DNA from: an uncultured bacterium | GTDB lineage: Bacteria; Gemmatimonadota; Gemmatimonadetes; Gemmatimonadales; Gemmatimonadaceae | Length of the DNA stretch: 57,165 nucleotides | NCBI GenBank assembly: GCA_963978095.1 | Contig: CAXBQP010000011.1 | Location: forward strand, 1-57,165 | Direction of reading: 5' to 3' | Shown: positions 17,504-22,747 of the stretch, in pieces | Position numbering within the stretch: position 1 is the first letter of the stretch | Layout of the letters: each line of letters begins with the position of its first letter | Notes under the pieces: model-generated | Seen by the model: only the letters and a program-made list of their open reading frames with translations | Databases searched by the model: none | Told to the model about the DNA's origin: nothing | Translations under genes and position numbers: made by a program

Positions 17504-18328
17504 TCAGCGCTTCTGCGAACGCACCGCCCACGCCCCCAGCGCCATCACCGCGCTGCAGGCGATGATCGCCGGCCCGGACGGGAGGTCGAACGGAACCGAG
17601 AGCCCGAATCCGACGACGGAGGCGAGCAGCCCGCTGAGGATCGCGACGGTGAAGATCCCGCCCATGCTCCTGGCGATCAGCAGGCCGGTCACGGCGGGGA
17701 GCACGAGGAAGTTGAAGACGAGCATCACCCCCGCGAACTGCATCGCGAACGCGATCACGAGGCCGAGCGTCGCGTAGAGCAGCAGGTTCCAGCGCGTCAC
17801 CTGATACCCCATGGTCCGAGCCGTTTCGCGGTCGAACGACACGAACAGGAACTCCTTGTAGAACACGACGTGCACGAGCAGCACGGGCACGGTCACCGCG
17901 AGCAGCACCAGCGTGTCGGCATGGGTGATGCCAAGGATGTTCCCCTGCAGGAAGATGTCGTGCGCTTCTCCCGTCTTGGCCTTCGCGACCAGCAGGATCC
18001 CGGCCGCGGCGGCGCCGGCGTACGTCACGCCGATGGTCGCGTCCGGCGGCACGCCGGACTTCGAGCCGCCGCCCGCACCGAAGAACAGGGCGCCGAGCAT
18101 CGTCACCACGAGCGAGACGGCCACGGGATGCCCGGTGAGCACCCCCCCGATCCCGAGTCCACCCAGAAAGAGCGCGAGGCCGATGCCGGCGGAGGAGAGC
18201 TGTGCGAGCGCGGCACCCACGAAGACGATGCGGCGCAACACCACGTAGACGCCGAGCACCGAGCAGGCCAGCGCGATCACGAGCGCACCGTAGAGCGCCT
18301 CGCGGAAGACCAGGATCGTGCTAAGCAT
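17504..18328 (-). CDS. Zn/Mn ABC transporter permease (ZnuB/MntB family)
   Basis: LGVYVVLRRIVFVGAALAQ, DIFLQGNIL, VSFDRETAR, DLPSGPAI; multi-TM. Confidence 0.9.
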   Translation of the reverse strand: MLSTILVFREALYGALVIALACSVLGVYVVLRRIVFVGAALAQLSSAGIGLALFLGGLGIGGVLTGHPVAVSLVVTMLGALFFGAGGGSKSGVPPDATIGVTYAGAAAAGILLVAKAKTGEAHDIFLQGNILGITHADTLVLLAVTVPVLLVHVVFYKEFLFVSFDRETARTMGYQVTRWNLLLYATLGLVIAFAMQFAGVMLVFNFLVLPAVTGLLIARSMGGIFTVAILSGLLASVVGFGLSVPFDLPSGPAIIACSAVMALGAWAVRSQKR

Positions 18329-19103
18329 GGGTGTGATGCCCCGGGTTCGTCGGGGTCGCGATGCGCCGCGCGACGACGACGCGGTGCCCGTCAAAAGTCT
18401 CCACATCGACGGGAATCTGGTACATGGCGGAGAGCGTCGATTCCGTCAGGATCTCGTCGACGCGGCCGATCCGGAATCCCCCCTCGAGCACCAGCGCGAT
18501 CCGCTCGACGTAGTTCGCGACCTCGTTCAGGGCATGACTGACCATCAACACGGTCAGGCGGTCCTGCTCGTGGAGTTCACGTACGAGACTCAGGATCTGG
18601 GTCGTCGCGACGAGATCCATCCCTTCGGTCGGTTCGTCGAGCACGAGGACGGTGGGTTCACCGACCAGCGCCCGCGCGATCAGCGTCCGCTGCTTCTGGC
18701 CCCCCGAGAGTGATCGCAGCTGCTGCGTCGCGAGGTGCGGGATTCCGACATGTTCCAGCGATGCCATGGCGCGGTCCCGGTCCTCGGCGCTCGGACGACG
18801 GCCGAGTCCGATACGGTCGTAGCGCCCCATCATCACGACTTCGACCACCGTGAGCGGGTAGACCGAATCCACGGACTCGCGCTGCGGCACATAGCCGAAG
18901 CGCAGCCCGGGACGCACGGTGACGGTCCCGGACAGCGGCGCCAACGAGCCGAGGATGTTCCGGAGCATCGTCGTCTTGCCCGCACCATTCGGGCCGACGA
19001 GTCCGAGGAAGTCCCCTTCGGGGATCTCGTAACTGATGTCGGTGAGGATCTTCTTCGCACCATAGCCAAGCGTGGCGCGATCGAATGTGACCAAGGCGCT
19101 CAT
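18321..19103 (-). CDS. Zn/Mn ABC transporter ATP-binding protein (ZnuC family)
   Basis: GPNGAGKTT, GYVPQ, LSGGQKQR, LDEPT, VSH; start ATG 19103 overlaps the SBP stop. Confidence 0.93.
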   Translation of the reverse strand: MSALVTFDRATLGYGAKKILTDISYEIPEGDFLGLVGPNGAGKTTMLRNILGSLAPLSGTVTVRPGLRFGYVPQRESVDSVYPLTVVEVVMMGRYDRIGLGRRPSAEDRDRAMASLEHVGIPHLATQQLRSLSGGQKQRTLIARALVGEPTVLVLDEPTEGMDLVATTQILSLVRELHEQDRLTVLMVSHALNEVANYVERIALVLEGGFRIGRVDEILTESTLSAMYQIPVDVETFDGHRVVVARRIATPTNPGHHTHA

Positions 19104-20008
19104 TTCACGTGGGTGGAGAGTTCCGCGATGTCGTGCTGCATCAGCTGGATGTAGTTCGTGATTCCCGGAACGCCGCCGACCGAGGGGGGAAGCACGAGCA
19201 CGGTCGCACCGGTCTGGCGGGCCACGAGATCCGCCATCTTCTTGTCGTAGAACGGTTCCATGATGATCACCTTGGCGCCGCTCGTCTTGACCGCCTGTAC
19301 GACCTGCAACAAATGACTCGGCGAGGGGGGCACCCCCGGCTTGGGTTCCATGTACGCGACAATCCGCATGCCGGTGTACTCGGCAAAGTAGTTCCAGCTC
19401 GTATGCCAGGCGACGACCGGCTTTCCCTTGATCTGCGCGAGTTGAGCTTGCCATCCGGCTTCCGCGGTCCCGAGCTTCCCCTCGAAGGACTTTTCGTTGG
19501 CTGCGTACACCGCCGCGTTCTTCGGGTCGAGTTCCGAGAACTTGGCGAGGAACAGCTTCGCCATCCGGCGCCCGTTCTCGGGGTCGAGCCAGTAGTGCGG
19601 GTTCCCCAGCGGGTGCACGTCGCCCATCGAGCGGTCCACATTCCCCCGCGGCACATCGATCAACGGCATGGCGCGACTGACGTCGACATACCCCGATCCG
19701 CCGAGCTGGATCTTGGGGTTCCGCGCGCCGTCGAGCAGCAGCGGCATCCAGCCGATCTCGAGCTCGAGGCCGACGAACGCCCATACATCGGCGTTCCGGA
19801 GCTGCAGCACGAAACTTGGCTTCGCCTCGATGAAGTGCGGATCCTGGAAGCCTTCCCCGATGTGCGACGCCTTGATCTTGTCGCCGCCCACCGCCTCCGC
19901 GATGTCATAGAGATCGGTCGTGCTGGTCACGACCTTCAGCTGTGCCTGTGCCGTGCCCGGGATGCTCACGGCGAGCAAGGCGACGGTGATCCATTGACGA
20001 ACGTGCAT
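19100..20008 (-). CDS. Zn/Mn ABC transporter substrate-binding protein (ZnuA/TroA family)
   Basis: Signal peptide; QDPH, GNPHYWLDP and WHTSWNYF His ligands; EPKPGVPPSP. Confidence 0.93.
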   Translation of the reverse strand: MHVRQWITVALLAVSIPGTAQAQLKVVTSTTDLYDIAEAVGGDKIKASHIGEGFQDPHFIEAKPSFVLQLRNADVWAFVGLELEIGWMPLLLDGARNPKIQLGGSGYVDVSRAMPLIDVPRGNVDRSMGDVHPLGNPHYWLDPENGRRMAKLFLAKFSELDPKNAAVYAANEKSFEGKLGTAEAGWQAQLAQIKGKPVVAWHTSWNYFAEYTGMRIVAYMEPKPGVPPSPSHLLQVVQAVKTSGAKVIIMEPFYDKKMADLVARQTGATVLVLPPSVGGVPGITNYIQLMQHDIAELSTHVK

Positions 20009-20046: not shown

Positions 20047-21369
20047 TCAGAAGGGATGCGGCTTGTGGGGACCGACAGAGAACACGGCCTGCAGGAGCAA
20101 TCGGTCGACGCCGGCGGTCCCCGCCTGATTCAACCGTTCGTACGACGCCATGAGCTTGGAGAACTCACTCGGGAACCACTCGAGCACGCCGGAGCCGGCG
20201 GTGAGACTCGCGCCAGCGGCGAGCGGGTCCTGCACGCTGTCGAAGCGACCGCCGAGGTAGAGACGCTGACTCACCTGCCACCGTGCGAAGACGTACCCGC
20301 CCGTGAAGTCGCGGCGTGGGCCGGCATATCCCGCGACGAACCCCGCCGACGGCGCGAAGGACGCGGAACGGGCCGGGAGGGCGGGGTCACGTTCATTAAG
20401 CTGTCGCATGACCTCCGCCTGCAACAGAAACGATCGGTACAATCCTTGCTGAAGCGGCTTCCACCGATACGTCAGATCGAGTCCAACCACACTCTGCCGT
20501 GCGCCGACGGCGTCTGCGGTGACGTTGTCGATGGTCGTGTACGCGGCGACCAATGGTTGCGCCACCTTGCCGGTCATCGCACTCGCCGAGAGCTCGACGT
20601 TCGCATCCGGCGAGAGATCGACGTAGTTCCGCAGTCGCGCGGAATACCCGAGTCCGTTCAGCTCGCGATTCACGGGCTGGTCGAGAGTCATCCCCTCCGG
20701 CGCGTCGATGAAGTGATCGACCACGCCGACGATGAGTTCCTGATAGAAACCGAACGGCGCTAGCACCTTGCTCACGGAGACGCCGGTGCCCTTGAGTCCG
20801 TCGGCGCTGAGGAAGCGTTGCAGCACGTACGGGTACTCGACGGTATGCAAGTCGTGTCGATGCGTGCTGTTCTGCTTTCCCAGCGGCATCAGGAAGCGTC
20901 CGAGCTGCGCTTGGAGCCCGTTGGGGAGCGCCGTCGTGGTCAGGAACGCCTGTTCGATCGAGATCTTCTCGGTGTCATTGATCCCGAGGAAGATGTCGCC
21001 GCGGAAGTACGGGTCCACCACGGCCTGCACCGCCAACTCCACTTCGCGGACGCGGAATCGCGAGTGGTCTTCCTGCGTGCTGCGTTTCGGCGACAGGTCA
21101 CCGACCAGGTCGCCGACGGCGCTGAAGTCAGGCAGCATCCGCGGGTTGCTGGTCCCCTGGGGCCCAGTGGTGTTCGTCGGGGCGGGCTTCGGCGCCGCCG
21201 TGAGTTTCTCGAACTCCTTCATGATGGCGACCGAGTCCGCGATCGCACGAGCGGCCGAGTCGACCGCGGTCGCGGGCGGCGCCGGCGGTGAGGGCGGGTT
21301 CGAGCGCTGCGCCCCGGCAGGGGCGGCGATGGCGAGGAGCACGAGCACCCGGGTCAGGGTGTTGCGCAT
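20047..21369 (-). CDS. Putative outer-membrane metal-uptake barrel (resembles proteins annotated as zinc-regulated outer-membrane receptors)
   Basis: Signal peptide; EVELAVQAVVDPY, HRHDLH, PSEFS; C-terminus GPHKPHPF; first large gene before the metal ABC genes. Confidence 0.72.
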   Translation of the reverse strand: MRNTLTRVLVLLAIAAPAGAQRSNPPSPPAPPATAVDSAARAIADSVAIMKEFEKLTAAPKPAPTNTTGPQGTSNPRMLPDFSAVGDLVGDLSPKRSTQEDHSRFRVREVELAVQAVVDPYFRGDIFLGINDTEKISIEQAFLTTTALPNGLQAQLGRFLMPLGKQNSTHRHDLHTVEYPYVLQRFLSADGLKGTGVSVSKVLAPFGFYQELIVGVVDHFIDAPEGMTLDQPVNRELNGLGYSARLRNYVDLSPDANVELSASAMTGKVAQPLVAAYTTIDNVTADAVGARQSVVGLDLTYRWKPLQQGLYRSFLLQAEVMRQLNERDPALPARSASFAPSAGFVAGYAGPRRDFTGGYVFARWQVSQRLYLGGRFDSVQDPLAAGASLTAGSGVLEWFPSEFSKLMASYERLNQAGTAGVDRLLLQAVFSVGPHKPHPF

Positions 21370-21454
21370 GTATGACGTGATGGAAGTGTCCTGAGGGCGG
21401 CGTTCCCTGATCGACCGGAACGCGGGAAGCCGGGGCGTGGCCCGGCGGCACGAC

Positions 21455-21811
21455 TCAGGACCGCGCGGGCGGGGCTCTCGACGAGAGGAGACGCAGCTGC
21501 CCGGCGCGCACCGGGCGACCGACTCCCGTGACGACGGCGGTCGGTCGCAGCGACTCCGTGATGACGAACGTGGGGCGCGGGGGTACCGCACTCTGCTGCA
21601 GTTGGATCGAGCAGACCACGCAGGTCGTGGCATCGTGGGCGAACGGATGCCGGTTCCCGTGCTGCTCGGCGTGGGTGTCGAGGCGAACCTCGCTCACCGG
21701 ATCGAACAGCTGCGACCCCGCGATCAATACGTGAAGCACCAGCAACACCGCTGCCGAAGCACGGCGCCGCCAGCGCGTCCACCTGCGGGGGAGGGAAAGG
21801 GGCAAACTCAC
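21455..21811 (-). CDS. DUF2946-like upstream ORF: His-rich + CxxC + C-terminal RAPP arrest motif
   Basis: Basic/hydrophobic N-terminus, HAEQHGNRHPFAHDATTCVVC, ends SSRAPPARS*; start probably GTG 21811, 7 nt after TAACCT. Confidence 0.8.
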   Translation of the reverse strand: MSLPLSLPRRWTRWRRRASAAVLLVLHVLIAGSQLFDPVSEVRLDTHAEQHGNRHPFAHDATTCVVCSIQLQQSAVPPRPTFVITESLRPTAVVTGVGRPVRAGQLRLLSSRAPPARS

Positions 21812-21844
21812 AGTGTTGAGGTTACGCGTTCGAGGCACAGAACG

Positions 21845-22747
21845 CTAGGCGGACGCCCCGCGAAAGCCCCTGAGCAGCGCCAGCATCGCCCGATCGTTGG
21901 TCACCATGTCATCCCCCTTGGGTGTCTCCAACACCATGGGAACGTGGCTCAGACGCGAGTCCGTCATGATCCGGCGAAAGGCCGCTTCACCGATCATTCC
22001 TACCCCGATCAGCTCGTGTCGGTCCTTATGCGACCCGAGCGGCGCCTTGGAGTCGTTCAGGTGGATCAACCCCAGCTGGTCCAAGCCAAGCACGTCGTCG
22101 AATCGGGAAAAGACTTCGCCGCAGTCGCTCGCCAGGTCATAGCCGGCGGCGAACACATGCGCCGTGTCGAGGCACACCCCGACCCGCGGCCGCAATGCGG
22201 CGGGAATCCGGCCGAGCAGCTCGGCCATCTCCTCGAACGTCGAGCCGAGCACCGTGCCTTGTCCGGCGGTGAGTTCCATGAGCAGGCGGGTGTCACCCAC
22301 CTCCTGCTCGAGCGCCTGCACGATGCCGTCGGCGTTGCGCGCGATCCCGCTCGCCCGATCATCCATGAAGTTGCCGGGATGCGAGACCAGCGCGTCAAGC
22401 CCGAGCGCATGGCACCGTCGCAGTTCAGCGGCGAAACTCGCGATGCTCTTTTCCCTCAGCGCCGGATCCGGCGACGCGAGATTGATCAGATAACTGTCGT
22501 GCGCGTTGGTGAATCGCACGCCACTCGCCGCGATCCCCGCGGTGAAGGCCGCCGCGATCGCCGGATCGATCTCATGCTCAGCCCACCGGTTGGCCTGCTT
22601 GGTGAAGATCTGCATCGCGGTCGCGCCGATATCGTCGGCGCGGCCGGGCGCGTTGAGCACGCCCCCCGCCGTGGAGATGTGCGCGCCCAGCGGGGCGTCC
22701 GTGGACGCCGTCGCCGACTTGGCACTGGAAGCCTTGCGGGGGGTCAT
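21845..22747 (-). CDS. nfo: Endonuclease IV
   Basis: GAHIS, HDSYLINLAS, HPG, ELTAGQG, CLDTAH, HLNDSK, DRHE, LETPK. Confidence 0.95.
   Translation of the reverse strand: MTPRKASSAKSATASTDAPLGAHISTAGGVLNAPGRADDIGATAMQIFTKQANRWAEHEIDPAIAAAFTAGIAASGVRFTNAHDSYLINLASPDPALREKSIASFAAELRRCHALGLDALVSHPGNFMDDRASGIARNADGIVQALEQEVGDTRLLMELTAGQGTVLGSTFEEMAELLGRIPAALRPRVGVCLDTAHVFAAGYDLASDCGEVFSRFDDVLGLDQLGLIHLNDSKAPLGSHKDRHELIGVGMIGEAAFRRIMTDSRLSHVPMVLETPKGDDMVTNDRAMLALLRGFRGASA

Follow-up and report, generated by a model that had tools for sequence, protein, structure and literature searches.

How does a bacterium with no clear Zur gene control zinc uptake, and what is the short reading frame that stands ahead of its uptake operon? 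The question arises from a 57,165-nucleotide stretch of DNA of an uncultured member of the Gemmatimonadaceae (the window), in which a 118-codon frame lies between nfo, upstream, and a gene for a 440-residue outer-membrane protein, followed by genes for a solute-binding protein, an ATPase and a permease (Table 1). An earlier note on this DNA read the frame as a metal-sensing ribosome-arrest leader in front of a zinc-type uptake operon. The coordinates bear out the 85 nt that it placed between the leader and the operon, whose porin ATG is at 21369.

Table 1. Features of the leader and of the operon behind it (positions in the window)
Feature	Position	Strand	Basis or remark
Leader ORF, 118 aa, CruR/CutF (DUF2946-like) putative arrest peptide	21455..21811	-	translation, profile, alignment, pN/pS
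Predicted export signal or membrane anchor, residues 9-36, predicted helix	21704..21787	-	hydropathy proxy, structure model
Candidate metal site H47-x-E49 ... H55 ... H59 ... C64xxC67	21611..21673	-	alignment; putative metal binding
RAPP arrest motif, 44 residues past CxxC	21467..21478	-	spacing across family
-10-like hexamer TAACCT, candidate leaderless or near-leaderless promoter	21819..21824	-	7 nt before leader GTG
Candidate -35-like element CTAGCG, over nfo stop codon, 18 nt before -10	21843..21848	-	comparison
5' arm of predicted masking stem: post-RAPP codons and stop, beneath stalled ribosome	21454..21466	-	pairing analysis
3' arm of predicted masking stem, CTCAGGAC, -26 to -19 of porin ATG	21388..21395	-	compensatory change in G020
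Porin-fold outer-membrane protein, 440 aa, homolog of Vibrio 'Omr'	20047..21369	-	model, Foldseek, hhalign
ZnuA-type solute-binding protein, Vpa1307/ZnuA2 subfamily	19100..20008	-	PF01297
ABC ATPase	18321..19103	-	best NCBIfam AztA 195.7 bits, below cut-off 220
ABC-3 permease	17504..18331	-	Pfam/NCBIfam

Re-translation and hydropathy agree with the export-like start described for the product: an Arg-rich n-region is followed by a hydrophobic stretch (15-residue Kyte-Doolittle peak 2.3). Translating 21811 to 21455 on the minus strand likewise puts RAPP (residues 112-115) three codons ahead of the stop, within the C-terminus SSRAPPARS. The four histidines reported as an array are all there, in the arrangement H47-x3-H51-x3-H55-x3-H59-x4-C64VVC67. 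The sole Pfam match of the leader is PF11162 (DUF2946), at 22.6 bits against a cut-off of 23.7 (E 1.9e-4). In six-frame translations of the window's own genome, R[AG]PP fell near the end of 79 of 26106 stop-to-stop segments; three of these 79 had a CxxC 38-52 residues upstream, and only the leader had one at 41-47. AlphaFold gave two helices, one spanning residues 9-36, and coil (pTM 0.35), a largely unstructured model in which a usable metal site is absent.

The earlier note had proposed looking for an upstream CxxC...RAPP frame in orthologous operons, and most of them carry one. We gathered 110 porin loci: 61 related genomes supplied 30, and the other 80 are the best of 353 found in the genome collection. 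They include the window itself and three genomes fetched twice, and seven have too little upstream DNA, leaving 103 evaluable. A leader precedes 94 of these 103 porin-ZnuA-type operons of Gemmatimonadota (the best 80 of 353 included), and nine lack it. Our script called a CxxC and RAPP leader at 81 and RAPP with a reduced Cys motif at 10, and it missed 12, three of which do carry a leader whose RAPP stands 9-12 codons ahead of the stop. Across 78 distinct leaders the CxxC-RAPP spacing is 42 (one leader), 43 (19), 44 (55) or 45 (three), so the assignment to the DUF2946/CruR type of CxxC and RAPP leader holds by spacing (44 here; 43-45 in 77/78). Matches to PF11162 at E<=0.01 were found for 36 of 80 family members, the best at 1e-6.

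An 80-row alignment of leaders has H59, C64, R112, P114 and P115 invariant, with E49 in 73 rows, C67 in 72, H47 in 62, H55 in 13 and H51 in only six. All four array histidines occur together in 3 of 76 leaders. This rules out the H-x3 array as a trait of the family; because H51 and H55 are poorly conserved, the array described in the note is local to the window's clade. From the alignment, the family core appears to be H-x-E, a variable His/Cys, a His and CxxC. E49 had no place in the first description of the leader, and nor did the RNA stem discussed below. Judged by hydropathy as a proxy for a signal-peptide predictor, 79 of the 80 leaders have a hydrophobic stretch and 75 a net positive n-region. 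Against the closest relative (G022), pN/pS in the sensor half is 0.029/0.547, and pN is below pS in that half in all nine pairs compared, values that indicate strong purifying selection on the frame at the protein level. A leader profile found matches in 57 of the 61 relatives and in 176 of the 201 genomes of the family, and the leader is the first gene of a metal-homeostasis operon with a long intergenic gap (median 115 nt). These comparisons confirm the frame as a gene of the CruR/CutF (DUF2946-like) kind, encoding a putative arrest leader.

Two characterized leaders invite comparison. CruR of Bordetella pertussis (Bp2923, PF11162; Roy 2022, PMC9426467) is likewise described as the first gene of an uptake operon, with an export signal, RAPP three codons before the stop and a CxxC-RAPP spacing of 45 (here 44) that is conserved within one or two residues; metal is predicted to relieve its arrest and shut import (PMC9426467). 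Arrest of CruR at RAPP was demonstrated in vitro (PMC12992588). CruR differs in responding to copper, in its TonB receptor cargo, in its Rho-dependent output and in having a dispensable signal, whereas the leader in the window has extra H-x-E and His ligands, a zinc-type porin-ABC cargo, a covarying start-masking stem and a host in the Gemmatimonadota. CutF of Rhodobacter capsulatus (Ozturk 2021, 2023 and a 2025 preprint) also has 118 residues and is exported, and its stall opens a stem over the ribosome-binding site of the next gene (PMC9973294). It carries CxxxC and a Pro-rich motif instead, its stall is promoted by copper and turns on a detoxifying oxidase, and its stem is intergenic, whereas one arm of the stem here consists of the leader's own last codons. 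The signal is required by CutF and dispensable for CruR (10.1101/2025.02.05.636593). SecM, ApdA and ApdP share the arrest motif (RAPP/RAGP), and in these too the stalled ribosome unmasks a downstream start; they differ in being secretion monitors that head sec/yidC genes and have no metal site. The output of SecM is a start-masking stem opened by the stalled ribosome.

A stem of this type is predicted for the leader family. We compared 61 leaders less than 45% identical, drawn from 88 loci after removing four duplicate or frameshifted loci and two more, of which one lacked a start and the other had a wrong one; six downstream starts were corrected by hand. Pairing between the ribosome footprint and the cognate start region averaged -12.65 kcal/mol versus -9.36 when partners were swapped (z -9.9), and seven control window pairs gave absolute z values of at most 2.4 for the 61 leaders and 3.6 for the full 88. 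In sliding windows the covariation peaked for RAPP+9..+30 with ATG-25..-1. With the footprint blocked, ATG-25..+5 could be opened for 10.6 instead of 14.1 kcal/mol (11.8 with foreign footprints), with an easing of more than 1 kcal/mol in 45 of 61 leaders and a change in the wrong direction in six. Given this covariation between the post-RAPP codons and the ribosome-binding region downstream, a ribosome halted at the motif would expose that region.

The start-masking stem, as in CutF and SecM, is predicted across the family, and weakly in the window itself. There the stem pairs GTCCTGAG with CTCAGGAC and ends 19 nt before the ATG, and 5 bp more can extend it to that codon. Blocking the footprint is predicted to gain little, from 7.7 to 6.0 kcal/mol (about 1.6), and nothing for -12..+12, and the leader-porin region of the window folds no better than its shuffles (z 0.06). 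The sense of the stem was the same whatever the cargo, with z values of -7.6 for porin leaders (40 of 80 representatives), -8.0 for 41 receptor leaders and -6.7 for 32 pump leaders, after removal of nine loci whose starts were uncertain and of four earlier ones. The G026, G031 and G023 loci had prompted the idea of an inverted logic for pump operons, in which the stall closes the start. This was ruled out by the 32 pump leaders, 25 of which open by more than 2 kcal/mol and three of which go the opposite way.

We consider it probable that the leader's RAPP stalls its own ribosome when zinc is scarce, opening the stem that masks the start of the porin-ZnuA-ZnuC-ZnuB genes. The leader would be made from its own promoter-like hexamer, with an export signal, the H-x-E/H/CxxC cluster and, 43-45 residues later, RAPP. 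By analogy with CruR and ApdA/ApdP, arrest would leave one proline of the motif in the P site and the other in the A site, and the footprint of the stalled ribosome would free positions -25..-1 of the next gene from the post-RAPP codons and stop. At that point C67 is 47 and H47 is 67 residues from the P site; since the tunnel is spanned by roughly 30 residues (PMC4571824), the ligands would be located at the Sec channel or inside it. Zinc bound to the nascent chain there would fold it and pull the arrest loose, after which the ribosome would terminate, the stem re-form and translation of the importer drop. An engineered precedent is ADR1a-SecM, in which zinc-driven folding releases SecM arrest (PMC4571824). 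The leader thiols may oxidize in the periplasm. Such a leader would stand in for Zur, and in relatives the same switch would control a ZneA-like RND pump as well as TonB-dependent receptors.

These other cargos came from 132 further leader loci (of 150 listed and 216 matches), at which the leader heads a porin gene 50 times, a TolC-type gene 45 times, a TonB-dependent receptor gene 34 times and something else three times; most TolC assignments are based on the first gene alone. In five of six longer regions, TolC is followed by an adaptor and an RND gene at the site of the window's operon, before maeB. At L185 (G026:C7), L186, L188, L189 and L190, TolC-adaptor-ZneA-like RND genes occupy the nfo-leader-maeB site and replace porin-ZnuABC. 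All four RND products tested score above the CusA/CzcA cut-off, and the closest structure is ZneA (764 bits; CusA 531 bits). In the sensor half, the pump leader of G026 and the importer leader of the window (genome G000) share 49 of 60 residues. On a FastTree of 167 leaders, built on few columns, 13 cargo changes are needed, at least seven of them forced by well-supported branches. Of 60 genomes, in which kin are not independent and several are incomplete, 28 have ZnuA, 25 have the pump clade (>=68% identity), none has both and seven have neither. Both types occur inside three genera. Genes of the ZIP family are found in 21 of the 25 pump genomes and 22 of the 28 ZnuA genomes, which rules out the RND pump as the only possible route of zinc entry; the pump therefore need not be an importer.

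Because the same leader heads either the pump or the importer and never both, such pumps may help zinc acquisition. The ZniCBA and ZneCBA systems of Cupriavidus metallidurans, the latter containing the closest solved relative of this cargo, are reported to rise in EDTA-starved cells, and a role in supply has been proposed (PMC11647595). They differ from our pumps in that their control is ascribed to antisense RNA, and the parts of the Cupriavidus literature that we covered hold no description of exclusion between ZniCBA/ZneCBA and ZnuABC. In the same species CzcI, encoded before the czcCBA RND operon, is CutF-like and is without the Pro motif. It is tempting to speculate that the Gemmatimonadota zinc-starvation response runs on an arrest-peptide zinc sensor in place of Zur and, jointly, that the ZneA-like RND clade serves zinc acquisition, by import or mobilization, rather than detoxification; we put this forward tentatively, as a combination with the odds against it.

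Pump cargo raises the question of polarity. Heavy-metal pumps of the RND family are normally induced by metal excess, and such cargo fits the polarity of CutF as well. The same leader and stem would then work with metal prolonging the stall and the cargo switched on in excess, the pumps exporting and the ABC transporter clearing the periplasm or being substrate-induced. The TolC-type cargo at 45 of those 132 loci, the CusA/CzcA-level scores of all four RND genes checked and a stem wired as in CutF are in keeping with this, as is the place of outer-membrane efflux proteins as commonest neighbors in Ozturk 2023 (PMC9973294). We nevertheless hold it unlikely. Importers make up two of the three cargo classes, the Vibrio counterpart of the operon is induced by zinc limitation (PMC9817125), and ZneCBA/ZniCBA are up in starvation (PMC11647595). 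One polarity must serve both cargo types, since near-identical sensors head both. Being on in scarcity fits all three classes, the pumps included because ZniCBA/ZneCBA are reported as starvation-induced, whereas being on in excess fits only the textbook role of the pump.

We return to stalling in scarcity as the preferred reading, and to the metal. The 440-residue protein has no Pfam or NCBIfam match, and carries a conserved NxxHxH and a C-terminal His. It models as a porin barrel (pLDDT 88.5), with OmpT, OprP and MOMP as Foldseek matches; model and Foldseek speak against a TonB-dependent receptor with its 22-strand barrel and plug. Its family has more than 5000 representatives, with a single homolog in the plasmid collection; relatives that carry a taxon name put the window in the Gemmatimonadaceae. 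An acidobacterial protein of 731 residues (P0151) joins the domain of this porin family to a segment annotated as a metal ABC permease.

A Vibrio campbellii porin homolog (hhalign 99.7%) heads the same porin-binding protein-permease order. That locus has two TGTTAT-N3-ATAACA boxes, the core of the Vibrio Zur site (PMC9817125), and no leader. From gene order and the published primers, translated by eye, we infer that it is omr-znuA2-znuB2, the name given in V. campbellii to a member of the Zur regulon that is induced 283-1034-fold by zinc limitation in V. parahaemolyticus (PMC9817125). Its binding protein Vpa1307 (ZnuA) is needed for growth in TPEN (PMC3794297). Outer-membrane protein, binding protein and permease are thus homologous and in the same order as here, and the Vibrio cluster differs in having Zur boxes, no leader, no ATPase and an 'Omr' annotated as TonB-dependent (PMC3794297, PMC9817125). 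The annotation of Vibrio Omr as a 'zinc-regulated TonB-dependent receptor' (L115:4818-7740) looks wrong, as the homolog models as a porin. The binding protein of the window matches its Vibrio counterpart at 141 bits (33% over 225 aa) and the best solved structure at 78 bits.

This binding protein is encoded by the only PF01297 gene found in the genome. H58, H132, H138 and H202 are conserved in 87/87 sequences, and Val takes the place of the AdcAII Glu in 79/87. By alignment it has the three His ligands of ZnuA (cluster A-I, zinc) and no fourth Asp/Glu of the manganese type; H58, H138 and H202 are presumably the ZnuA metal ligands. For several of the receptors behind a leader, ZnuD is the best or second-best match. 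ZnuA-type ABC, ZnuD/heme-type receptor and ZneA-like RND genes were found as cargo, and copper-related cargo was not. Zinc is the likeliest metal of operon and leader, as the Vibrio counterpart is Zur-controlled and induced by zinc limitation; together with the ZnuA ligands this sustains the description of a zinc-type uptake operon. As the note had remarked of the window, no Zur-type box was seen: none of 88 leader loci matches either of two box patterns, which could miss a phylum-specific box. The single Fur-family gene of the genome scores 89.5 bits with Fur and 38 with Zur, and no clear zur gene was found in this 91%-complete assembly, all model scores being below cut-off. Most relatives have one strong match to the Fur family (Fur or Zur). 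Manganese has a separate mntH-usp-mntR locus in the same genome. A second heavy-metal RND gene, 44% identical to the G026 pump and with no leader detected, lies near that locus (G000:C16:2988-9500, L114).

It is rather improbable that the sensed and imported metal is cobalt, nickel, copper, cadmium or manganese, or that several metals are read. His, Glu and Cys ligands are unspecific, a fourth His of the binding protein is invariant too (H132, 87/87), and the characterized family members sense copper (PMC9973294). TPEN and EDTA chelate other metals too, so the published experiments that used such chelators do not single out one metal. Against this, the Vibrio counterpart has Zur boxes and responds to zinc add-back (PMC9817125), the binding protein lacks a manganese-type Asp and mntH-mntR is separate, the operon has no copper chaperone or oxidase, and the RND cargo scores far higher with ZneA than with CusA.

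The signals around the leader bear on how its expression is set. A generic scan of 21300-21950 found neither an intrinsic terminator nor a sigma-70 consensus promoter. TAnnnT occurs 4-11 nt before the leader start at 55 of 83 loci, compared with 10 of 664 shifted controls and 0 of 83 porin starts; its recurrence backs the leaderless promoter that had been proposed at TAACCT. A -35-like element 17-19 nt before the -10 is present at 20 of 83 loci versus 1 of 664 shifted controls, a signal that may partly reflect the nfo stop codon. The combination CTA[AG]C-N18-(CG)TAnnnT over that stop, here and in orthologs, may be a Gemmatimonadota form of housekeeping promoter.

Rho-dependent termination could be the control, as in CruR, with the stem secondary. 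A rho gene is present, C exceeds G in the last 150 nt of the leader in 61/61 cases, and the intergenic regions are long and structured. However, the C excess vanishes at synonymous sites, where C/(C+G) is 0.51 in the leader and 0.52 in the porin gene, which leaves a selected rut site unsupported, and the covariation targets exactly the start region. The stem is thus the better-supported output and control by Rho improbable, and the two layers can coexist. The genome also holds a second rho-like gene (G000:C6:22982-24049; 437.6 bits, below cut-off).

A leader that monitors secretion or disulfide formation as SecM does, and not metal, would account for the export signal in 79 of 80 leaders, and RAPP leaders precede sec and DsbA genes too (PMC12992588); it is very improbable given that all three cargo classes are metal transporters and that conserved His and Glu stand beside the Cys pair. 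A chance frame, or a free small metal-binding protein with no role in cis, would suit the weak Pfam score and the unstructured model, and can practically be dismissed in view of the fixed CxxC-RAPP spacing, the leader's first place in operons, the covarying stem and a pN far below pS.

The leader family and both mechanisms, those of CruR and CutF, are already published. The earlier note held that use with metals other than copper was not characterized. This was overstated, as Ozturk 2023 inferred nickel/cobalt members (including His-only clusters beside HupE/UreJ) and RND neighbors (PMC9973294); it was also understated, as the leader is found before TonB-dependent receptor genes too, and before an RND clade that does not occur together with ZnuABC. 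The family contexts given in PMC9426467 are copper ones, and that paper states that copper and zinc have no known riboswitch and calls CruR the first metal-sensing uORF. Gemmatimonadota are not named in those parts of its text and supplements that were searched. ZnuA, zinc ABC transporters and gemmatimonad members were not found in the main texts of the family papers that were searched; File S1 of Ozturk 2023 and the EMBO J appendix and large files may list such neighbors. Among the papers listed by our literature searches, none deals with a zinc-sensing arrest leader or with ZnuA/pump exclusion. Related earlier work includes PMC8456105 and PMC6103462; PMC9431628 mentions a DUF2946 gene, with no bearing on a zinc leader.

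What the leader offers is a probable new metal for the CruR/CutF kind and, from the comparison of genomes, a clue to RND pumps that starvation induces. An arrest peptide that senses zinc in nature would extend metal-sensing uORFs to a second metal, would explain the control of zinc uptake in a phylum with no clear Zur, and would join the polarity of CruR to the output of SecM and CutF. The cargo swap makes it testable why pumps of the Zni/Zne type are induced by metal starvation, with the near-identical leaders of G000 (importer) and G026 (pump) as a ready pair. A translational zinc biosensor might also be made from so short a leader.

Some loci depart from the common arrangement. In G028:C18 (L008/L180) and G029:C255 (L010) a porin stands without its own leader or binding protein, and a leader lies behind it and before pump genes, a possible intermediate of the cargo swap. 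At L175-L178 (G023, G019, G004, G027) two leaders stand back to back, before a pump and before a TonB-dependent receptor. At L026 and L028 the leader is lost between nfo and the porin, and a common motif, CACATGGAGTTAGCCTGGA, lies upstream of the porin. Two leaderless loci, L042 and L063, share a non-coding motif, GGACAATTCCCCGA...GGAATCGTCATG...TTGAGGT.CCGATCCTA, about 250 nt before the porin, which may belong to a divergent gene. Neither motif matches Rfam, and 12 leaderless or leader loci gave no Rfam riboswitch match. Finally, two positions in the leader stand out. About eight residues before CxxC, 39 of 44 receptor leaders have Cys, compared with 3 of 46 pump leaders, which mostly have His. 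At residue 27 (21731-21733 in the window), in the middle of the hydrophobic signal, 68 of 80 leaders have Gln or His, which may tune Sec engagement.
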